Sequence record: OM258170
DNA: 47,884 bases
Origin: Escherichia phage ZL19
Reading direction: 5' to 3' (one strand)
Within the stretch, counting starts at the first letter, position 1. Every line of letters starts with the position of its first letter. The notes beneath the pieces are model-generated. The model was not told the DNA's origin. It made no database searches and saw nothing but the letters and a program-made list of their open reading frames with translations. This document shows, in pieces, positions 6,652 to 28,805 of the stretch. Position numbers and translations under genes: made by a program.

Positions 6652-8217
6652 ATGTCTTTAGTATGGGAAGAAATGACCATTCAGGAAAAGATGGCCGTCA
6701 AGGCGATATCAGAACACAGCTTCGAGGGCTTTCTTCGCTGCTGGTTCCAAATCACACAAGGCGAGCGATACATCCCTAACTGGCACCACAAATATCTATG
6801 CCGAATTATCGACGAGATTATAGCAGGGGAGCGAAAGGACACCATCATCAACATAGCGCCGGGTAGTGGAAAGACGGAAATCGCTTCAATTCACTTTCCG
6901 GCCTACTCTATGGTTAAGTTAAAGAAGGTTCGCAACCTTAACATCTCTTTTGCCGACTCACTGGTTAAGCGCAACTCCAAGCGCGTACGTGACCTCATCA
7001 AGTCTCAAGAATTTCAGTCACTCTGGCCATGTAAGTTTGGCACTTGCAAAGACGATGAGCTTCAGGTTCTTGATGAGAGTGGCAAGGTGAGATTTGAGTC
7101 AATCTCGAAAGCGGCTGGTGGTCAGATTACTGGTGCTCGAGGTGGGTACATAACTGAAACATATAGCGGCGCGGTTTTGCTGGATGATTTTGACAAGCCC
7201 GCCGATATGCTATCAGCAGTGTACCGCTCGAATAATCACGTAATGCTAAAGAACACGATTCGCTCACGTCGCGCTAGCTCTGTAAAAGGAAAGGCGACAC
7301 CAATAATTTCGATACAGCAGCGACTGCACGTCAATGACTCAACGTATTTCATGATGGAAGGCGGTATGGGTATCGACTTTGACTTGATTAAGATACCTGC
7401 GCTAGTTACTGAGGATTACATAGATTCGCTTCCTGACTGGATTAAAGAACAGTTTGCGGAAGACGTATTAAGCAGTGAGTGCATTGAGCGAGATGGCGTA
7501 AAGTACTACAGCTACTTTCCTAAAAAGGAGTCAGTAAACGACCTTGTTGCGATGTGGGATAGTGACCCGTACACTTTCCTTAGTCAATATCAGCAGGAAC
7601 CTGTAGCACTAGGTGGAAACCTCATTAATGTGGATTGGTTCCAGCGAATCAGCGATACTTTCAGACCTCCAGCTAAGTATGACTATAGATTCATCACATG
7701 CGATACCGCGATGACTACAAAGAGTTATAGTGACTTCTCTGTGCTTCAACTGTGGGGATATAAGGATGCTAAGATTTACCTTATAGACCAGCGTCGAGGC
7801 AAATGGGAGGCGCCTGAGTTGGAGGCGGAACTACTGGACTTCGAGAGGAAATCAAGGGCAACCAGTCAGGTAGATGGCATCCTACGAAAAATCATCATCG
7901 AGAAGAAATCATCCGGAATCGGACTTATTCAGTCGGCAGGCAGAGTGATGAGAACGCCGATAGAGCCATACGTACCTGATAACGACAAGCTAACCAGGGT
8001 AATGAGCGCACTGCCACAGATTAAGGCTGGCAATGTAGTTCTTCCAGAATCAGCGCCGTGGTTAAGCGGATTGCTCACGGAGATTGCAGCTTTTACGGCA
8101 GATGATAGCCACAAACACGATGACCAAATTGACTGTCTAACAATGGCAGTAAACCTTGTTCTCAATATCGCAGATGATCCTAAGTCCAGATTAATGCGCA
8201 TAGCGGGAATTAAATAG
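6652..8217 (+). CDS. terminase large subunit
   Basis: 521 aa, Walker A APGSGKT, C-terminal nuclease-like region, position before portal. Confidence 0.85.
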   Translation: MSLVWEEMTIQEKMAVKAISEHSFEGFLRCWFQITQGERYIPNWHHKYLCRIIDEIIAGERKDTIINIAPGSGKTEIASIHFPAYSMVKLKKVRNLNISFADSLVKRNSKRVRDLIKSQEFQSLWPCKFGTCKDDELQVLDESGKVRFESISKAAGGQITGARGGYITETYSGAVLLDDFDKPADMLSAVYRSNNHVMLKNTIRSRRASSVKGKATPIISIQQRLHVNDSTYFMMEGGMGIDFDLIKIPALVTEDYIDSLPDWIKEQFAEDVLSSECIERDGVKYYSYFPKKESVNDLVAMWDSDPYTFLSQYQQEPVALGGNLINVDWFQRISDTFRPPAKYDYRFITCDTAMTTKSYSDFSVLQLWGYKDAKIYLIDQRRGKWEAPELEAELLDFERKSRATSQVDGILRKIIIEKKSSGIGLIQSAGRVMRTPIEPYVPDNDKLTRVMSALPQIKAGNVVLPESAPWLSGLLTEIAAFTADDSHKHDDQIDCLTMAVNLVLNIADDPKSRLMRIAGIK

Positions 8218-22039: not shown

Positions 22040-22798
22040 ATGTTAACACCAAAAGTTAAACTGGAAATCTTCCAGCACGCAAAAGAAGTTTACCCGCACG
22101 AATGTTGCGGGGTTGTCACGCAGAAAGGTCGCGCGCAGAAATACCACAGAATCAAGAACGCCAGCAAAGACCCAGAGAATGAATTCATCCTTGATTCAAA
22201 TGAGTATGCAGACGTTCTCTTTGAGTTGGCTCACAACGAGTCAATTGTTTATGTAGTTCACTCTCATACAGGCGATGGAGCCACAACAAGACCAAGCCCA
22301 GCGGACATTTGCAGCTGCAATGAGTGCGAGATTCCTTACGTTATCGTCAGCATTCCGGAAGGAGACATGCGGATCCTTGAACCTTCAACCATGCCACTGA
22401 TTGGTCGCCCATGGGGTCTTGGTAGCTTTGACTGCTGGGAGTTGGTAATGGCATTTCACAAGAAATACGGCGTCAAACTGAATGACTACCGCGTTAATTA
22501 CCCGTGGTGGGAGAAGCGATACAATGAGAATATCTATGAAGACAACTGGATTAAGGAAGGATTTGAGCTAGTAAAAACTTCAGATATTCCTATTGGCTCA
22601 ATGATTATGATGCAGGTTCAAAGTGAGGTGACAAACCACGCCGGAATCTATATTGGCAACAACAGATTCATTCATCACCTTTATGGTAAAATGAGTTCAG
22701 TTGATATCTACTCCGATTACTGGCGAGAGCGCACTGTGCGAATCGTTCGCCATAAGGATTTACCAGAGGATGTAATTTATGACCCAGAAACTGATTGA
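22040..22798 (+). CDS. tail assembly protein (lambda K-like, JAB/MPN + NlpC/P60)
   Basis: HECCGVV and HSH motifs plus C-terminal Cys/His region; track ORF 22010 starts at TTG. Confidence 0.7.
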   Translation: MLTPKVKLEIFQHAKEVYPHECCGVVTQKGRAQKYHRIKNASKDPENEFILDSNEYADVLFELAHNESIVYVVHSHTGDGATTRPSPADICSCNECEIPYVIVSIPEGDMRILEPSTMPLIGRPWGLGSFDCWELVMAFHKKYGVKLNDYRVNYPWWEKRYNENIYEDNWIKEGFELVKTSDIPIGSMIMMQVQSEVTNHAGIYIGNNRFIHHLYGKMSSVDIYSDYWRERTVRIVRHKDLPEDVIYDPETD

Positions 22799-23351
22799 TA
22801 TTAAGTTAGGCTTGTCTCTAGGCCGCAAGTTTGGAAAGATTCACCAGATGGCAGTGAATAGCGTGCCAGAGGCTATGCGAGCGCTTTGCTCTCAGATTCC
22901 TGCATTCAAGGAGTTCATGAGCAGCCACGTTGGGCAGAACACAAGATACGCAGTCTTTGTAGATGGTAAAAATGTGAACGAGCATCAAATCTCTGATTTT
23001 AGTGCCGTTCAGGAGATACGCATCTTGCCAATCCCGCAAGGCCGAAAGTCCGGCGGTTTGTTTCAGACAATTTTAGGTGCAGCGCTTATCACGGTTGGCA
23101 TCTTCACTGGGCAGATTTATCTTGTTGGTGCTGGCGTATCTTTGGCAGCAGGTGGTATTGCCCAGCTACTCTCACCGCAGGCAACTGGATTAAAGACCCA
23201 GAACAACCAAACAAGCAACAGAGCATCTTACGCATTTGGCTCCTCTGTAAACACGGTGGCTGCTGGTTATCCGGTTTGCCTTCCTTACGGCTATCGGACG
23301 GTTGGCGGGTCTGTATTTAGTGCAGGCAGTTATAGTGAAGATATTTCTTGA
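22779..23351 (+). CDS. tail assembly protein (lambda I-like)
   Basis: 190-aa ORF overlapping K 3' end, Gly-rich hydrophobic C-terminal half. Confidence 0.6.
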   Translation: MTQKLIDIKLGLSLGRKFGKIHQMAVNSVPEAMRALCSQIPAFKEFMSSHVGQNTRYAVFVDGKNVNEHQISDFSAVQEIRILPIPQGRKSGGLFQTILGAALITVGIFTGQIYLVGAGVSLAAGGIAQLLSPQATGLKTQNNQTSNRASYAFGSSVNTVAAGYPVCLPYGYRTVGGSVFSAGSYSEDIS

Positions 23352-23408
23352 TAATTAAATTATTCTGCATTACAGTCACCTTAAGATTTACTCTTTTGGT
23401 GACTTAAA

Positions 23409-23897
23409 ATGCAAAAATTCGAGAATTACCTTTACGAGATTGATGGAAAGCTATACTGGAAGGAGGCGAGAAACAACTCGGCCAAAATAGAGTCAGAGGC
23501 TGGATTTATTCATCATTCTGGCTATAGGTATGTTAAATTGAATGACAAACAGACTTCATCTCACAGGATTCTTTGGTACTTAAGAAATGGATTCAAGATG
23601 CCACCTAAAGGCATGGAGATTGACCATATAAATGGAAACAGGCTTGACAACTCAGCTAGTAACTTACGGATTGTATCTTCATCGGTAAACTCAAAAAACA
23701 GGTCAAAAAGGTCAGATAACTCAAGCGGCGTTGCGGGAGTTGGATTTCATAAGTTAACTGGAACGTGGTGGGCTACGATATCAATAAACAAAAAGAGAAA
23801 GCACTTGGGGCTATTCGTTGATTGGTTTGAAGCAGTGTGCGCCAGAAAGAGCGCTGAGAACTTAAATGGTGAGTACACCTATAGACATGGTAAGTAA
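23409..23897 (+). CDS. HNH homing endonuclease with AP2-like domain
   Basis: EIDHINGNRLDNSASNLR HNH motif plus GVAGVGFHKLTGTWWATI AP2-like segment; free-standing between I-like and J-like genes. Confidence 0.65.
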   Translation: MQKFENYLYEIDGKLYWKEARNNSAKIESEAGFIHHSGYRYVKLNDKQTSSHRILWYLRNGFKMPPKGMEIDHINGNRLDNSASNLRIVSSSVNSKNRSKRSDNSSGVAGVGFHKLTGTWWATISINKKRKHLGLFVDWFEAVCARKSAENLNGEYTYRHGK

Positions 23898-23905
23898 AAT
23901 CAGAA

Positions 23906-23938: not shown

Positions 23939-26900
23939 ATGGCACAAATGATCAAAACAAACATGAGGCTTTGTGATATGGCTGAAGAGATTAAGATTTA
24001 TGGTGCCAAGGGTGGTAGCCAAAAGCAGCATCAACCAGTGGAGCAGGAAGATAACCTAATTTCACTTAACAAGGTTAAGGTTCTTTTGGCGGTTGCTGAC
24101 GGTGAGGTGGATCCTAACTTCTCATTGAAGGATTTATACCTTGCTGACGTTCCGGTACAAAATCAGGATGGTAGCTACAACTATGAAGGTGTTCGCGCTG
24201 AGTTCCGTGCTGGCACGCAGTATCAGGACTATATCGCCGGGCTTGACGGTGCTAACTCAGAGATTCAGGCATCCAGAGAAATCAAGAACGATACCCCGTA
24301 CATCATTGCAGTTAACAATACTCAGCTTTCAGCAATTCGAGTTAAGCTATTCTGGCCTCGACTGGTTAAGCAAGAAAGCAATGGAGACCTGAACGGAACA
24401 ACCTGCGAGTATGCAATTGACCTTTCTGTTAATGGTGGCGCTTACCAGGAATACACTCGCGGAGTTGCTAACGGAAAGACCACTACAGGTTACGACCGAA
24501 GCATTCGCGTAAACCTTCCGGCAGAATTTGATAGCGCGCTTGTTCGCATCCGTAAGATTACGCCGGATTCAACAAGTAGCACCCTGGTTAACGGTATGCA
24601 GATTACAACCTATCAGGAAGTAATTGACGCTAAATTCCGCTATCCGCTTACGGCTCTGGTTTACGTTGAGTTTGGTTCTGACTTGTTCCCTAACGGCATC
24701 CCAACAATCTCAATCAAGAAGAGATGGAAGTTGATTCAGGTTCCTACAAACTATAACCCTGAAACCAGAACTTATAGCGGCACATGGAATGGTCTATTCA
24801 AGATGGCATGGTCAAACAACCCAGCATGGGTTCTTTATGACCTAGTAACAAACCGCCGTTACGGACTTGACCAGCGAGAGCTGGGTGTAGAGATTGATAA
24901 GTGGGGCCTGTACGAAGCTGCACAATTCTGTGACCAGATGGTTCCAGATGGCAAGGGTGGCTTAGAGCCGCGTTACCTTTGCGATATGGTTGTACAGAAC
25001 AAGGTTGAGGCTTACACGCTAATTCGTGATATCTGTTCAATCTTTCGCGGCCTGACTTTCTATGACGGCGAAAAGATTGGCATCGTGGTTGATAAGCCTC
25101 GCAACCCATCTTACATCTTCACCAATGATAACGTTGTAAACGGATTGTTCAGTCGCACATTTGCCAGCGATAAAAGTCTTTACACCACGGCAAACGTTCA
25201 GTTTGATGATGTAGAGAACAACTATCAGCAGGATGTTGAGCCAGTATTTGAGCTTGAGGCTACTCGCAGGTTCGGGTTTAATCCAGTCGACCTTACGGCA
25301 ATTGGCTGCACTCGCAGAAGTGAAGCAAACAGACGCGGCAGATGGCTCCTAAAAACCAACCTGAGAAGCGAAACTATCAGCTTCACTACCGGGTTGGAAG
25401 GCATGATTCCGATGATTGGCGAGGTTATTGCAGTTAATGATGCGGCATGGTCGAGCAACTATCAGTTGAACCTTTCCGGCCGCATTGAATCAGTGCAGGG
25501 GCTACAGGTTTTTACACCGTTTAAAGTTGACGCAGCGCCGGGTGACAGAATTCTTCTTAACAAGCCAGACGGAAGCCCGGAGGCAAGAACTATTGCCAGT
25601 GTTTCGGAAGACGGCAGAACAATCAACCTTAACACTGCTTTCAGTTTTGTAGCTCAGCCAGACACTGTGTTCGCAATTGATAAGGATAACCTTGCGCTTC
25701 AGCAGTATGTTGTGACCGGGATTCAAAAGGCAGATACTGACGGCTCTGATTCATTTCAGTACACGATTACTGCGGTGGAGTATGACCCTAACAAGTATGA
25801 CGAGATTGACTACGGCGTTAATATTGTTGACCGTCCAACTTCAGTCGTAGAGCCTGATAGATTGTCGCCACCTGAGAATTTAACAGTGTCAAGCTACAGC
25901 AAGGTTGTTCAAGGATTATCAGTTGAGACGATGGTTATCGGGTGGGATAAAGCGCCATACGCTAAAACCTACAATGTTCAATGGAGGAAAGAGAATGGTA
26001 ACTGGATTAACGTACCCAGAACAGCAAGCACAGAAGTTGATATCGAAGGTATTTACGCAGGAATCTATGACGTTAGGGTTCGCAGCGTATCAGATACTGA
26101 AAACGTGTCTGCCTGGTCTGACATTGTAACGGTGTCGCTAACTGGCAAGATTGGTCGCCCATCGGCGCCTACTGTTATCACGGCATCAACAGATGAGGTA
26201 TTTGGCATCCGTGTTAAGTGGGGTTTCCCTGAAGGCTCTGGTGACACTGCTTACACTGAACTTCAGCAGGTCCCTGATAATGGTGACGGCACTTACAATC
26301 CTGATAACGCAAGTTTGCTTACGTTACTTCCGTATCCGGCATATGAATACTGGCACACTCCGATTCAGCCAGGTAAGGCTATCTGGTATCGCGCAAGATT
26401 GATTGACAGAATAGGTAATACGTCTGATTGGTCTAGTTTCGCAAGAGGCATGAGTACTGACGACGAAAACATTATCAATGATTACATCAAAGTTGATATT
26501 GAAGGCTCAGAAGGATTCAAATACCTCGAACAGAATGCGATTCAAAAGAATCAGGACATCCAGAACCAGGCAGAATCAATTCTTGAGAACGCATTAGCTA
26601 ATGACACTGATGTTCGTCGCATGACAAAGGAGAATGGCGCAAGAAAGGCGGAGTATGTTCAGGCTGTGAATCTCATAGCCGATGAAACTCAGGCGCGCGT
26701 AGAGGCTCTAACGGCCCTTAAGGCGCAGATAGATGATGAAGTTGTAGCATCGATTACAGAAGTTCAGACTGCATTAGCCACAGAGACAGAAGCAAGGACT
26801 ACTGCAGACACGACTCTATCAGCAAGACTTGGTGAAAATGAGGCGGCTTTAAACCAGAAGCTGGACGCATTCTCTAATGCCACATCGACTGGTGTGCAGT

Positions 26901-27295
26901 ACGGAATTAGTCTTGGCCTGAAATACAATGGACAGACTTATTCATCCGGTATGAGCATGGAGCTTGTTGGTACTGGTGGTAATGTTCGCAGTCAGTTCAT
27001 CTTTGACGCAAACAGATTCGCAATCAGTAATGGTATTGGTTCTGGCTCCGGTCAATGGCAGCTCCCCTTCGTTGTAGAGAACGGAAACGTAATCATCCAA
27101 AGCGCGGTAATTGGCGATGGATCAATCAGCAACGCGAAGATTGGTAACTTCATTCAGTCTAATGACTGGGGTACAAATTCAGGCTGGAGGCTAGATAAGG
27201 ATGATGGATTGACGCTTAGGGGTTCCGATCGTGGCAAGATGAGAGTCCTGGACCGGAATGGAGTGGTTAGGGTAAAATTAGGATACTTGGGTTAA
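23939..27295 (+). CDS. central tail fibre / host specificity protein (lambda J-like)
   Basis: 1118 aa; segment QVPTNYNPETRTYSGTWNGLFKMAWSNNPAWVLYDLVTNRRYG aligns by eye with lambda J; start may be ATG 23978. Confidence 0.85.
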   Translation: MAQMIKTNMRLCDMAEEIKIYGAKGGSQKQHQPVEQEDNLISLNKVKVLLAVADGEVDPNFSLKDLYLADVPVQNQDGSYNYEGVRAEFRAGTQYQDYIAGLDGANSEIQASREIKNDTPYIIAVNNTQLSAIRVKLFWPRLVKQESNGDLNGTTCEYAIDLSVNGGAYQEYTRGVANGKTTTGYDRSIRVNLPAEFDSALVRIRKITPDSTSSTLVNGMQITTYQEVIDAKFRYPLTALVYVEFGSDLFPNGIPTISIKKRWKLIQVPTNYNPETRTYSGTWNGLFKMAWSNNPAWVLYDLVTNRRYGLDQRELGVEIDKWGLYEAAQFCDQMVPDGKGGLEPRYLCDMVVQNKVEAYTLIRDICSIFRGLTFYDGEKIGIVVDKPRNPSYIFTNDNVVNGLFSRTFASDKSLYTTANVQFDDVENNYQQDVEPVFELEATRRFGFNPVDLTAIGCTRRSEANRRGRWLLKTNLRSETISFTTGLEGMIPMIGEVIAVNDAAWSSNYQLNLSGRIESVQGLQVFTPFKVDAAPGDRILLNKPDGSPEARTIASVSEDGRTINLNTAFSFVAQPDTVFAIDKDNLALQQYVVTGIQKADTDGSDSFQYTITAVEYDPNKYDEIDYGVNIVDRPTSVVEPDRLSPPENLTVSSYSKVVQGLSVETMVIGWDKAPYAKTYNVQWRKENGNWINVPRTASTEVDIEGIYAGIYDVRVRSVSDTENVSAWSDIVTVSLTGKIGRPSAPTVITASTDEVFGIRVKWGFPEGSGDTAYTELQQVPDNGDGTYNPDNASLLTLLPYPAYEYWHTPIQPGKAIWYRARLIDRIGNTSDWSSFARGMSTDDENIINDYIKVDIEGSEGFKYLEQNAIQKNQDIQNQAESILENALANDTDVRRMTKENGARKAEYVQAVNLIADETQARVEALTALKAQIDDEVVASITEVQTALATETEARTTADTTLSARLGENEAALNQKLDAFSNATSTGVQYGISLGLKYNGQTYSSGMSMELVGTGGNVRSQFIFDANRFAISNGIGSGSGQWQLPFVVENGNVIIQSAVIGDGSISNAKIGNFIQSNDWGTNSGWRLDKDDGLTLRGSDRGKMRVLDRNGVVRVKLGYLG

Positions 27296-27336
27296 TAAAT
27301 TATTGGCGGGTAAATCCCGCCTAAGGTTTTATTTGT

Positions 27337-27708
27337 ATGGCTGGTTTGTATGGTTGGGAGATGTACGATTCTGCGGGGCGGCTTGTAGCTGACAATAGCA
27401 GCATAATGAGCAGGAGGCTATTCACTTATAGCGTGCCACTGATAAGGGCTTTATCTGCAAACATACCATGGGAAGTCTCATTTAATGTTAACTTCTCAAA
27501 TGGAACGCCTTATGCGCATTGCAATACCAGAACAGGGGTGGTGGTCCCTGCATCTACTAACTGGTATCCAGTATCACCTGATATAATAATATCTGGAAAT
27601 GCAGTTACACTCAGGTATACAAACAGGCATGTTTCCTATCCGGACGATCTTGGGTACATACTTGCAGTTGGTGGTGTTGATGTTCACTTAGGAGTTTATA
27701 ATAAATGA
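27337..27708 (+). CDS. hypothetical protein, paralog of next gene (tail/host-range associated?)
   Basis: N-terminus YGWEMYDSAGRLVAD resembles N-terminus of ORF 27705. Confidence 0.4.
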   Translation: MAGLYGWEMYDSAGRLVADNSSIMSRRLFTYSVPLIRALSANIPWEVSFNVNFSNGTPYAHCNTRTGVVVPASTNWYPVSPDIIISGNAVTLRYTNRHVSYPDDLGYILAVGGVDVHLGVYNK

Positions 27709-28502
27709 GTGATTATGGTGTTGAACTAATAAATGACTATGGTTTAAAGGTTGCTGACGCAGAGGATGTAAATTACGTACTAAGAAGTTCTGGTACATTT
27801 AATGATTCAAATTTCTACTCATATGCAAACTCCACATCTGCAATTAGCCTCATGACCACAGGAATGAATTCGCCTCTTCTATTTCTAAAGATGAACGAAA
27901 GTAGGTCAAGGATAAGCCAGAAGCCTGGAGTTAACAAAATATCACCTGATTTTGTTAACCCAAATACCACAATAACAAAGACAAGCATAGACCTATTCAA
28001 GTGGTGGAACATACCGCTAGGAACTGTAGAGTATTACATATTTGACAAGTGGATCCCGCCAGAAAGAAGTGATTATGGAATGCAGATATTTAATGAATCT
28101 GGTTCTATAATCTTTGATTCTGGCTGGTACTTCCTCAAACTTAGGGATGTGCTATGGCTTGATCCAAGTTATCCAAACCATTCAGATCAGGAAGGTGGTA
28201 GTAACTGGACTAACGTCGGGAATATTGTCAACTCCGCGAACGTATCAAACTCAGCATTATCAATGCCTGTTGGTAGGGGGTGGGTTGAAACATCATTGCA
28301 GGGTGGGTACTACTATAATGAATGCTGTCACCTTGACTCATCCGGTAATCTATTTATATCCATAATACCTACAGGTATATACCTTGATGTTTCACCAACT
28401 GGCGGCTGGGTTGGCAATATGAGGACGCAAGTTATGGTTTGCGACACCTCGAGGCTGCCTCTTAATTACAATCCAGTTGAGATAAGAAAGGAAAACAAAT
28501 AA
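27705..28502 (+). CDS. hypothetical Asn/Ser-rich protein with repeated DYG motif
   Basis: ATGA overlap with upstream paralog; two DYG-x-x-x-x-N-x-x-G segments. Confidence 0.4.
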   Translation: MSDYGVELINDYGLKVADAEDVNYVLRSSGTFNDSNFYSYANSTSAISLMTTGMNSPLLFLKMNESRSRISQKPGVNKISPDFVNPNTTITKTSIDLFKWWNIPLGTVEYYIFDKWIPPERSDYGMQIFNESGSIIFDSGWYFLKLRDVLWLDPSYPNHSDQEGGSNWTNVGNIVNSANVSNSALSMPVGRGWVETSLQGGYYYNECCHLDSSGNLFISIIPTGIYLDVSPTGGWVGNMRTQVMVCDTSRLPLNYNPVEIRKENK

Positions 28503-28504
28503 AA

Positions 28505-28528
28505 ATAAGGCCCTTAATGGGCCTTCTT
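28505..28528. terminator. bidirectional terminator
   Basis: AGGCCC-TTAAT-GGGCCT hairpin between convergent genes. Confidence 0.5.
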
Positions 28529-28699
28529 GTTAAAACAATATCCAGCTGGTAAAACCGAATAAAGATTTTGATTTACCTCTCCATTGCTGTATTCACAACC
28601 TCTAATTGTAACTGAGTAGTCACTGATAAGAACTATAGTTCTTTCACCGCCTGAACAACCAGCTAAAATCATTGCAGTGATAACGATTAATTTTTTCAT
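28514..28699 (-). CDS. small lipoprotein (Cor/Llp-like superinfection-exclusion candidate)
   Basis: Signal peptide with lipobox LAGC, 61 aa, located beside tail fibre genes. Confidence 0.45.
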   Translation of the reverse strand: MKKLIVITAMILAGCSGGERTIVLISDYSVTIRGCEYSNGEVNQNLYSVLPAGYCFNKKAH

Positions 28700-28700
28700 C

Positions 28701-28805
28701 TTAGAACCCTTTAAAGTTGCTAGCCAGCATCAGAAGCCATACGAAGAAACCAGTAGCTGCTACACCGAAGATTGCAGAGATTACGTTAGTAGTTAAGTTA
28801 GTCAT
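28701..28805 (-). CDS. small hydrophobic membrane peptide (34 aa)
   Basis: ATG with AAGGA RBS; stop abuts lipoprotein start; single predicted TM; below track cutoff. Confidence 0.35.
   Translation of the reverse strand: MTNLTTNVISAIFGVAATGFFVWLLMLASNFKGF

Follow-up and report, generated by a model that had tools for sequence, protein, structure and literature searches.

In small siphoviruses, including the Drexlerviridae, the region directly downstream of gpJ is an exchangeable locus for receptor-binding proteins (RBPs), as described in PMC8594841. According to bioRxiv 10.64898/2026.04.02.716166, the C-terminal tip of J co-varies with the RBP encoded at this locus, and the locus families, which it calls unrelated, are linked to FhuA, BtuB, LptD and YncD; the text of both papers links domains of J to TolC, LamB and NupG. 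The RBP of phage Oekolampad (Bas18) has been solved in complex with LptDE (bioRxiv 10.1101/2025.07.07.663478), and an accessory protein of phage Rtp is reported in bioRxiv 10.64898/2026.04.02.716166 as a superinfection-exclusion factor that binds LptD from the periplasm. In the T1 record, J (ST33) precedes ST32 (101 amino acids, aa) and ST31 (229 aa), after which come a terminator and, in reverse orientation, cor. Here we describe the corresponding locus of Escherichia phage ZL19 (record OM258170), an Rtp-like member of the Drexlerviridae (a T1/Rtp-like siphovirus and coliphage) whose 47,884 nucleotides (nt) were analyzed as a whole and are called the window below. Two open reading frames (ORFs) of this phage, A and B, follow the J-like gene, and we propose that the cassette they belong to is most likely an uncharacterised FepA-type allele of the known exchangeable RBP locus. 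Its parts are as follows.

23939..27295, + strand: J-like central tail fibre or tail-tip protein, 1118 aa, assigned from Pfam, phrog_31 and identity to Rtp rtp43
27204..27295, + strand: cassette-specific C-terminal tail of J, the last 31 codons, ...LTLRGSDRGKMRVLDRNGVVRVKLGYLG, where similarity to Rtp and Bas01 is lost
27337..27708, + strand: ORF A, 123 aa, a small protein modelled as a beta sandwich and proposed to serve as accessory subunit or adaptor in a tip module
27705..28502, + strand: ORF B, 265 aa, proposed RBP; N-terminal ~150 residues conserved, C-terminal half more family-specific
28514..28699, - strand: Cor-like lipoprotein, 61 aa, MKKLIVITAMILAGC..., lipobox LAGC (residues 12-15), proposed superinfection-exclusion factor

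Both ORFs lie directly downstream of the homologue of gpJ, with ORF A beginning 41 nt 3' of J and B next. An earlier interpretation made from the letters and their ORFs (the sequence-only reading) had taken A and B as ORFs joined by a stop/start overlap ATGA and placed right after a J-like gene. The two ORFs are real, their overlap lies at 27705-27708, and the location is borne out by the matches of 23939..27295 to phrog_31 and to the Pfam families FNIII-A_GpJ (PF24801; expectation value, E, 2.5e-39), Phage_Tail_Tip (PF09327; 1e-31) and Phage-tail_3 (4e-16).

We compared this region by direct blastn with Rtp and Bas01, two phages that use LptD. J is 87-95% identical to its counterparts in these phages up to 27167-27203: nucleotide identity to Rtp rtp43 is 94.7% up to 27203, and similarity to Bas01 ends at 27167. 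Similarity to both phages returns at 28793, so that the breakpoints are 27203/27204 and 28792/28793. Given this loss and return of identity, the replaced segment is 27204..28792, which comprises the last 31 J codons, A, B and the opposite-strand lipoprotein gene. When 27000-28800 was used as the query, the match to other Rtp-like phages was confined to its first 160-204 bases, inside J. The slot of A, B and the lipoprotein is occupied in Rtp and Bas01 by rtp44 and rtp45, and Rtp44 falls in the same family as 9rpt_C, the solved RBP that binds LptD (phmmer, 8.5e-44).

The same cassette swap has occurred independently in the Klebsiella Weberviruses. The genomes of VAC2 and NJS1 align collinearly up to a point ~40 codons short of the J stop, and once more from 3 nt after B; between these breakpoints VAC2 carries a J tail, A and B, and NJS1 carries a different J tail and an unannotated Rtp44-like ORF. 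In other words, the cassette is exchanged as an allele between otherwise collinear genomes in both comparisons (window vs Rtp/Bas01; VAC2 vs NJS1). The ORF in NJS1 (locus L026, MH445453; 27699-28655, + strand) encodes a 318-aa homologue of the Rtp44 family, the LptD-type RBP, right after a J gene with an Rtp-like tail. VLCpiS8a is a further Klebsiella phage of the A/B type. We also considered the drop in guanine-plus-cytosine (GC) content, from ~0.47 in J to ~0.39 in the cassette, as a mark of the cassette, and rejected it because GC stays low in the following early genes and is therefore not diagnostic.

The receptor can be approached through the closest relatives. Positions 27000-28800 are ~99% identical to phages IME253, TR3, phiA2-1 and Rao1, in all of which A, B and the downstream ORFs are labelled hypothetical. 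B is 100% identical in these four phages, and A and the lipoprotein are 100% identical to IME253 gp60 (P0021) and to the IME253 counterpart, respectively. IME253 requires FepA and TonB, as established by spontaneous resistant mutants, fepA deletion, complementation and adsorption assays (PMC6499177), and the BASEL paper lists IME253 (FepA) among the Drexlerviridae of known receptor (PMC8594841). In addition, phiA2-1 was isolated on an fhuA deletion host. Apart from the cassette, the tail genes resemble those of Rtp, and IME253 has identical A and B proteins; the cassette therefore appears to be the natural carrier of FepA specificity, as far as one typed phage can indicate. Our best reading is that 27204..28792 is probably a FepA-specific RBP cassette with its own superinfection-exclusion lipoprotein, and that this cassette quite likely encodes terminal-receptor specificity. 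Our literature search for the FepA RBP of Drexlerviridae found none described. The available text of PMC8594841 and of bioRxiv 10.64898/2026.04.02.716166 describes no proteins of a FepA-type locus; FepA appears there only as the receptor of IME253, and it is not mentioned in the portion of the bioRxiv text that was available.

AlphaFold2 monomer models of A and B were built with family alignments. A was modelled as a confident all-beta sandwich (predicted local distance difference test, pLDDT, 89.6) that gave no informative structural match, and B as a two-part all-beta protein at moderate confidence (pLDDT 75.7; predicted template modelling score, pTM, 0.78). The fold of the predicted B model is shared with the solved LptD RBP 9rpt_C; the matches of B in BFVD were all uncharacterised proteins. 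The segments of B with pLDDT below 50 (residues 1-21, 121-124 and 133-135) correspond to both copies of a motif, described below, that is also among its most conserved parts. Such low scores are as expected of strands that would pair with a partner absent from the monomer model. Residues 41-50, 71-100 and 171-180 and the C-terminal half of B are variable. If one of the two proteins makes the receptor contact, we lean towards B rather than A.

In another possible reading, A and B travel with the J tail and help to assemble, adapt or stabilise the tail tip but do not contact the receptor, and FepA specificity resides elsewhere, for example in the J tail or in another tail protein. Three observations would fit such a role: A has no informative structural match; the conserved motifs, which the monomer models poorly, have the look of protein-protein docking elements; and bioRxiv 10.64898/2026.04.02.716166 speaks of 'accessory proteins' in these loci. 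However, the cassette exactly replaces an RBP gene, the fold of B is shared with a solved RBP, and the cassette-specific J tail is only 31 residues long. Moreover, outside this tail J shares 95% identity with its counterpart in the LptD-using Rtp, so that only the cassette can explain a different receptor. We therefore regard a pure assembly role as unlikely. The sequence-only reading had guessed that the two proteins might be host-range or receptor-binding determinants, and this is well supported by the comparative and structural evidence: the position in an RBP locus, the replacement of a validated RBP family in two genera, and the fold of B.

Next, we considered the families to which A and B belong. 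The two have no match in Pfam, and A has none among the PHROG families. B has its own family, phrog_4062 (3e-53), and its match to phrog_425 is confined to residues 101-150 (E 6.9e-5). When 1.84 billion representatives were searched exhaustively with HMMER, only 159 relatives of B were returned, 12 of them at E <= 1e-30, and the distant ones align to its first ~150 residues only. Four relatives of 513-597 aa (P0118, P0145, P0153 and P0155) keep these N-terminal ~150 residues with both YG motifs and add unrelated, long, serine/threonine-rich C-terminal regions with repeated ...TCTY...GGNG..ITYSW... units, for which no Pfam family matched. A conserved N-terminus joined to differing C-terminal parts is the usual layout of RBPs, an anchor plus a variable head. 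One further relative, P0172, touches DUF6453 (PF20051, 3e-5), just under the Pfam cut-off.

We also checked 20 related loci, 19 of which contain the upstream region; one of them, the IME253 record (L004), duplicates the window. In all 19 loci with upstream sequence, an A homologue (115-139 aa) lies directly upstream of the B homologue with an overlap of 4-8 nt. The 14 J proteins found upstream of A/B pairs vary greatly in sequence and in length (1027-1885 aa as read), and yet every one of them ends in ...GGW[RQ][IL]xK..N..[IVF].D.NN.VR[FVI][KR].G[KR]L, whereas the J ends of Rtp and Bas01 differ. A common tail on divergent J bodies, together with the constant association of A with B, indicates that the J tail, A and B travel together, in agreement with the co-variation of J tip and RBP reported in bioRxiv 10.64898/2026.04.02.716166.

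Several of these loci are prophages. In four lambdoid E. coli prophages (L005-L008; 6877-8979, + strand) the A/B pair lies between J and a gene resembling the lambda side-fibre gene stf (MAVKISGVLKDGAGEPV...), at the position that lom occupies in lambda; B is 75% and A 65-67% identical to the window proteins. This arrangement raises the question of whether A and B connect or assemble lateral, Stf-like tail fibres: the lambdoid prophages hold the pair between J and an stf homologue, and a gene for a Stf-like fibre is the first to follow B on the + strand in prophages of E. coli, Serratia, Pantoea, Mixta and Erwinia. However, the lateral fibre gene of the window, of Rtp-like phages and of Weberviruses is located elsewhere or on the other strand, outside the swapped segment. 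A and B co-vary with the J tail and not with the fibre, and the cassette that alternates with theirs at this site codes for a terminal RBP. A role in lateral fibres therefore seems to us quite improbable.

The two proteins carry three copies of one motif.

27349..27393, + strand: motif copy 1, A residues 5-19, YGWEMYDSAGRLVAD
27714..27758, + strand: motif copy 2, B residues 4-18, YGVELINDYGLKVAD
28074..28118, + strand: motif copy 3, B residues 124-138, YGMQIFNESGSIIFD

The peptides cited in the sequence-only reading are correct, and the motif of B is indeed repeated internally (residues 124-138). The pattern YG.[EQ][LIM][FIY][ND]..G..[VI].D has exactly 3 occurrences in the six-frame translation of the whole 47.9-kb window. 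Because this pattern was written post hoc from its three copies, the conservation of the motif is the stronger evidence. It is among the best-conserved parts of 18 A homologues and 23 B homologues, and the homologues that bear it come from phages or prophages of Escherichia, Klebsiella, Serratia, Pantoea, Erwinia, Mixta, Phytobacter and Brenneria. Windows of 25 residues around the three copies gave Smith-Waterman scores above those of shuffles (p <= 0.0015), and profile-profile alignments were in register between the A N-terminus and B 121-154 (E 7.5e-6), between A and the B N-terminus (E 1e-3), and between the N-terminus and the middle of B (E 2e-3).

Beyond the motif, A and B are not measurably alike. 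BLASTP gave no match between them (E 22), full-length Smith-Waterman comparison gave an ordinary score (p 0.3), and in hhalign the similarity never extended beyond 17-32 columns. Since similarity ends this early, the two share a common repeated motif, and full-length paralogy is not demonstrable. The sequence-only reading had called A and B paralogous on the basis of similar N-termini. The paralogy is not borne out, for significant similarity over most of the shorter protein was not found; the likeness of the N-termini holds as a repeated hairpin-like motif of ~17 residues, with at most the next strand beyond it. Pairwise alignment thus came close to the outcome which that reading had itself named as evidence against it, namely no similarity past the first 15 residues.

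The insignificant full-length comparisons would also be expected if the DYG motif were a chance resemblance between unrelated neighbouring genes. However, the motif is conserved in both families across genera, the three in-register profile alignments reach E 7.5e-6 to 2e-3, and the motif recurs at equivalent positions of T1 ST32, which begins MAYGISTWDANG, and of ST31, which begins MSYGAFIDVNG and carries RWGMAIWDASGKLV in its middle; copy 3 of B aligns with RWGMAIWDASGKLV. Chance therefore has very little to commend it as an explanation. We also observed that all J types share GW[RQ][IL]xK..(G/N)N..[IV] at or just before the recombination breakpoint (window 27150..27295; J tails in L002-L025), which by eye resembles YGWQIFD..GN.V.D of A. 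The hhalign scores of the J-tail profile (E 0.008 against A, 0.48 against B) are not significant, so that a fourth copy of the motif in J is a lead only.

The sequence-only reading could not name the family of these proteins; it can now be named for B, as PHROG 4062, distantly related to T1 ST31 and N15 gp23 (PHROG 425). ST31 is the seed of PHROG 425 (full-length match, 9e-68). In hhalign, the B profile matched ST31 with E 1.3e-4, at the internal motif. ST31 combined with four bridging sequences matched the B profile over B 1-159 with 99.4% probability and E 1.8e-21. In addition, the relative P0110 matches both phrog_4062 (1.8e-37) and phrog_425 (5e-8) over its full length, and PHROG cross-matches link 4062 and 425. 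PHROG 425 does not cover most of the length of B, which accordingly falls outside the ST31/N15 gp23 family itself; the relationship is a remote homology at superfamily level that takes in the N-terminal ~150 residues and both motifs. An hhalign comparison of the A profile with T1 ST32 found nothing beyond the N-terminal motif seen by eye. In the T1 cryo-electron microscopy paper the J C-terminus was not resolved, and gp31 and gp32 are absent from its text.

The T1 record also suggests a very different role. ST32 and ST31 are annotated there as 'outer membrane protein' and 'membrane associated protein', and this, together with the category of PHROG 425, could be taken to place A and B among host-cell 'moron' or membrane proteins that act in exclusion or host takeover. 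However, no signal peptide, lipobox or hydrophobic segment was seen in A or B when they were read by eye without a prediction tool, and both are predicted to be soluble and all-beta. They are translationally coupled and lie in the late tail operon directly after J, and the old T1 annotation appears to be computational only. Based on these points, we give a membrane or moron function scarcely any credence.

The right-hand part of the cassette resembles the T1 locus in a further respect. The 61-aa lipoprotein matches phrog_1119 (Cor) at 7e-5 and is 42% identical to T1 Cor in BLASTP (E 1e-7), with an alignment that extends past the signal peptide; it is thus a small, Cor-like lipoprotein with a lipobox, encoded inside the swapped segment. 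It was found in only the five records that carry the cassette, and is absent from most prophage copies of A/B. Three other features lie at or near its gene and the gene junctions.

27305..27321, no strand: GC-rich terminator-like hairpin between J and ORF A, GGCGGG-loop-CCCGCC, from a consensus scan
28507..28525, no strand: bidirectional terminator-like hairpin between the convergent ORF B and lipoprotein gene, from a consensus scan
28701..28805, - strand: 34-aa hydrophobic ORF (MTNLTTNVISAIFGVAATGFFVWLLMLASNFKGF) across the right-hand junction 28792/28793

The T1 record has an annotated terminator at the place equivalent to the J/ORF A hairpin. The 34-aa ORF ends 1 nt before the lipoprotein ATG. 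It shares its ribosome-binding site and its four opening codons (MTNL) with Rtp and Bas01, where they form the conserved 5' end of rtp45, so that the right-hand junction lies at the extreme 5' end of the lipoprotein transcription unit. This ORF could be a remnant of the recombination, or could encode a genuine small membrane peptide that is made along with the lipoprotein. In a prophage of Erwinia phyllosphaerae (L020), the B homologue is directly followed by a gene (6802-7095, + strand) for a 97-aa lipoprotein that has the lipobox LLTSC and, by a match with E 1e-13 that passes the Pfam cut-off, a TonB C-terminal domain (PF03544). Anchored in the outer membrane, this domain could act as a decoy that binds the TonB boxes of transporters and so excludes TonB-dependent phages; if this is true, it would fit a TonB-dependent receptor for the A/B module. 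On the other side of J, an inserted HNH endonuclease gene (23409..23897, + strand; PF13392, 1e-13; phrog_99) separates J from the I-like gene (22779..23351), at a site that is empty in Rtp and Bas01 (alignment gap 23350-23904).

Several observations weigh against the assignment of the cassette to FepA recognition. The link to the receptor comes from a single experimentally typed phage, IME253. NJS1 is cited as FepA-dependent (PMC10051899), and we considered it as a second FepA-typed A/B phage; it was rejected, because it carries an Rtp44-type cassette. The allele-receptor comparison consists of one typed A/B phage (IME253, FepA) and one phage cited for the same receptor with another allele, by which RBP family and receptor would not be strictly one-to-one. 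Either the receptor of an RBP family is not strictly the same from host to host, or the one cited for NJS1 needs re-examination. Confidence in the AlphaFold2 model of B is only moderate, its superposition on 9rpt_C takes in only about half of B, and no sequence similarity to Rtp44 or 9rpt_C was detectable in A or in B: the B profile gave nothing at E <= 10 against PDB sequences and no match to Rtp44 in hhalign (E 0.49). The bridging sequences used with ST31 had been retrieved with the B profile, which makes the E 1.8e-21 result partly circular. In addition, the prophage copies of A/B are mostly without an adjacent lipoprotein gene and are then followed by a Stf-like side-fibre gene. The presence of A and B in the virion, the choice of the one that touches FepA, the docking role of the motifs and the target of the lipoprotein are inferred.

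If the FepA-specific cassette is nevertheless the right explanation, it may work as follows. A and B would be products of the late tail operon, translated alongside J late in infection, and would dock non-covalently on the cassette-specific J tail at the tail tip, presumably through the YG hairpins and the conserved N-terminal ~150 residues of B. B would be the receptor-binding subunit, whose less conserved, variable stretches contact the TonB-dependent enterobactin transporter FepA, and A would be an adaptor or second subunit. The lipoprotein gene would be transcribed convergently, using the promoter that serves rtp45 in Rtp, and its product may block FepA in the infected cell; this would provide superinfection exclusion and protect progeny, in the manner of Cor and FhuA in T1.

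What is new here is the allele itself, its remote homology to the FhuA-type locus of T1, the link in fold between B and an LptD RBP, the repeated hairpin motif and the exact junctions. A candidate gene pair and a candidate exclusion lipoprotein can thus be assigned to FepA recognition by T1-like phages, for which the responsible proteins are not described in the literature searched. The remote homology between FepA- and FhuA-type proteins and the link to the LptD-type fold suggest a common origin of the cassettes. More speculatively, and with rather less likelihood, the hairpin YG-x-Q-h-F-D-x-x-G-x-h-h-x-D, of which A has one copy and B two, and which recurs at corresponding sites of ST32/ST31 and as a look-alike in the J tail, might be a universal plug onto the J tip; FhuA- and FepA-type RBPs, and at fold level the LptD-type, would then form one duplicated-domain superfamily and not 'unrelated families'. 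If this speculation is true, receptor specificity might be re-engineered by swapping the C-terminal half of B alone. The exchange junctions, inside the last ~31-40 J codons and at the 5' end of the lipoprotein gene, could serve for retargeting Rtp-like phages between FepA and LptD in either direction, and annotation pipelines could label PHROG 4062 proteins encoded after J as putative RBPs.

The cassette can finally be set beside the known systems. It shares with the described RBP locus of small siphoviruses the position after J, the exchange of cassettes between similar genomes, the co-varying J tip, a companion lipoprotein with a proposed role in exclusion, and an outer-membrane transporter as the probable terminal receptor. 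It differs from the Rtp cassette in several ways. Rtp44 and Rtp45 are encoded on the strand opposite J, whereas A and B lie on the J strand; Rtp44 and the Oekolampad RBP are a single 311-aa protein without a small partner, unlike A plus B; and the Rtp J tail is longer and different, with LptD as the receptor as against FepA for the IME253-type cassette.

A similar logic is seen in T5, whose RBP pb5 and lipoprotein Llp both act on FhuA, and in phage H8, whose pb5-like RBP uses FepA with TonB: a dedicated RBP sits non-covalently at the tip of a straight fibre, and a lipoprotein blocks the same receptor (compare PMC8594841). However, the genomic position of the T5-type RBP is different and the protein is much larger than B; tblastn with B found only 8 phage records, none of them T5-like.

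A further likeness is to the ST32/ST31/cor locus of T1, which corresponds to gp22, gp23 and cor of N15 (PHROG 557, 425 and 1119) and is of the FhuA type. Its architecture is identical to that of the window cassette and runs from J through a small and a large ORF and a terminator to a lipoprotein gene on the reverse strand. Both loci have a YG or WG motif at the N-terminus of the two ORFs and in the middle of the larger one, a J tail of similar type (the T1 J tail ends ISVRDASGRLRVQIGRL), and lipoproteins that are 42% identical to each other. The receptor is TonB-dependent in T1 and in IME253, but it is FhuA for T1 and FepA for IME253 and, probably, for the window phage.

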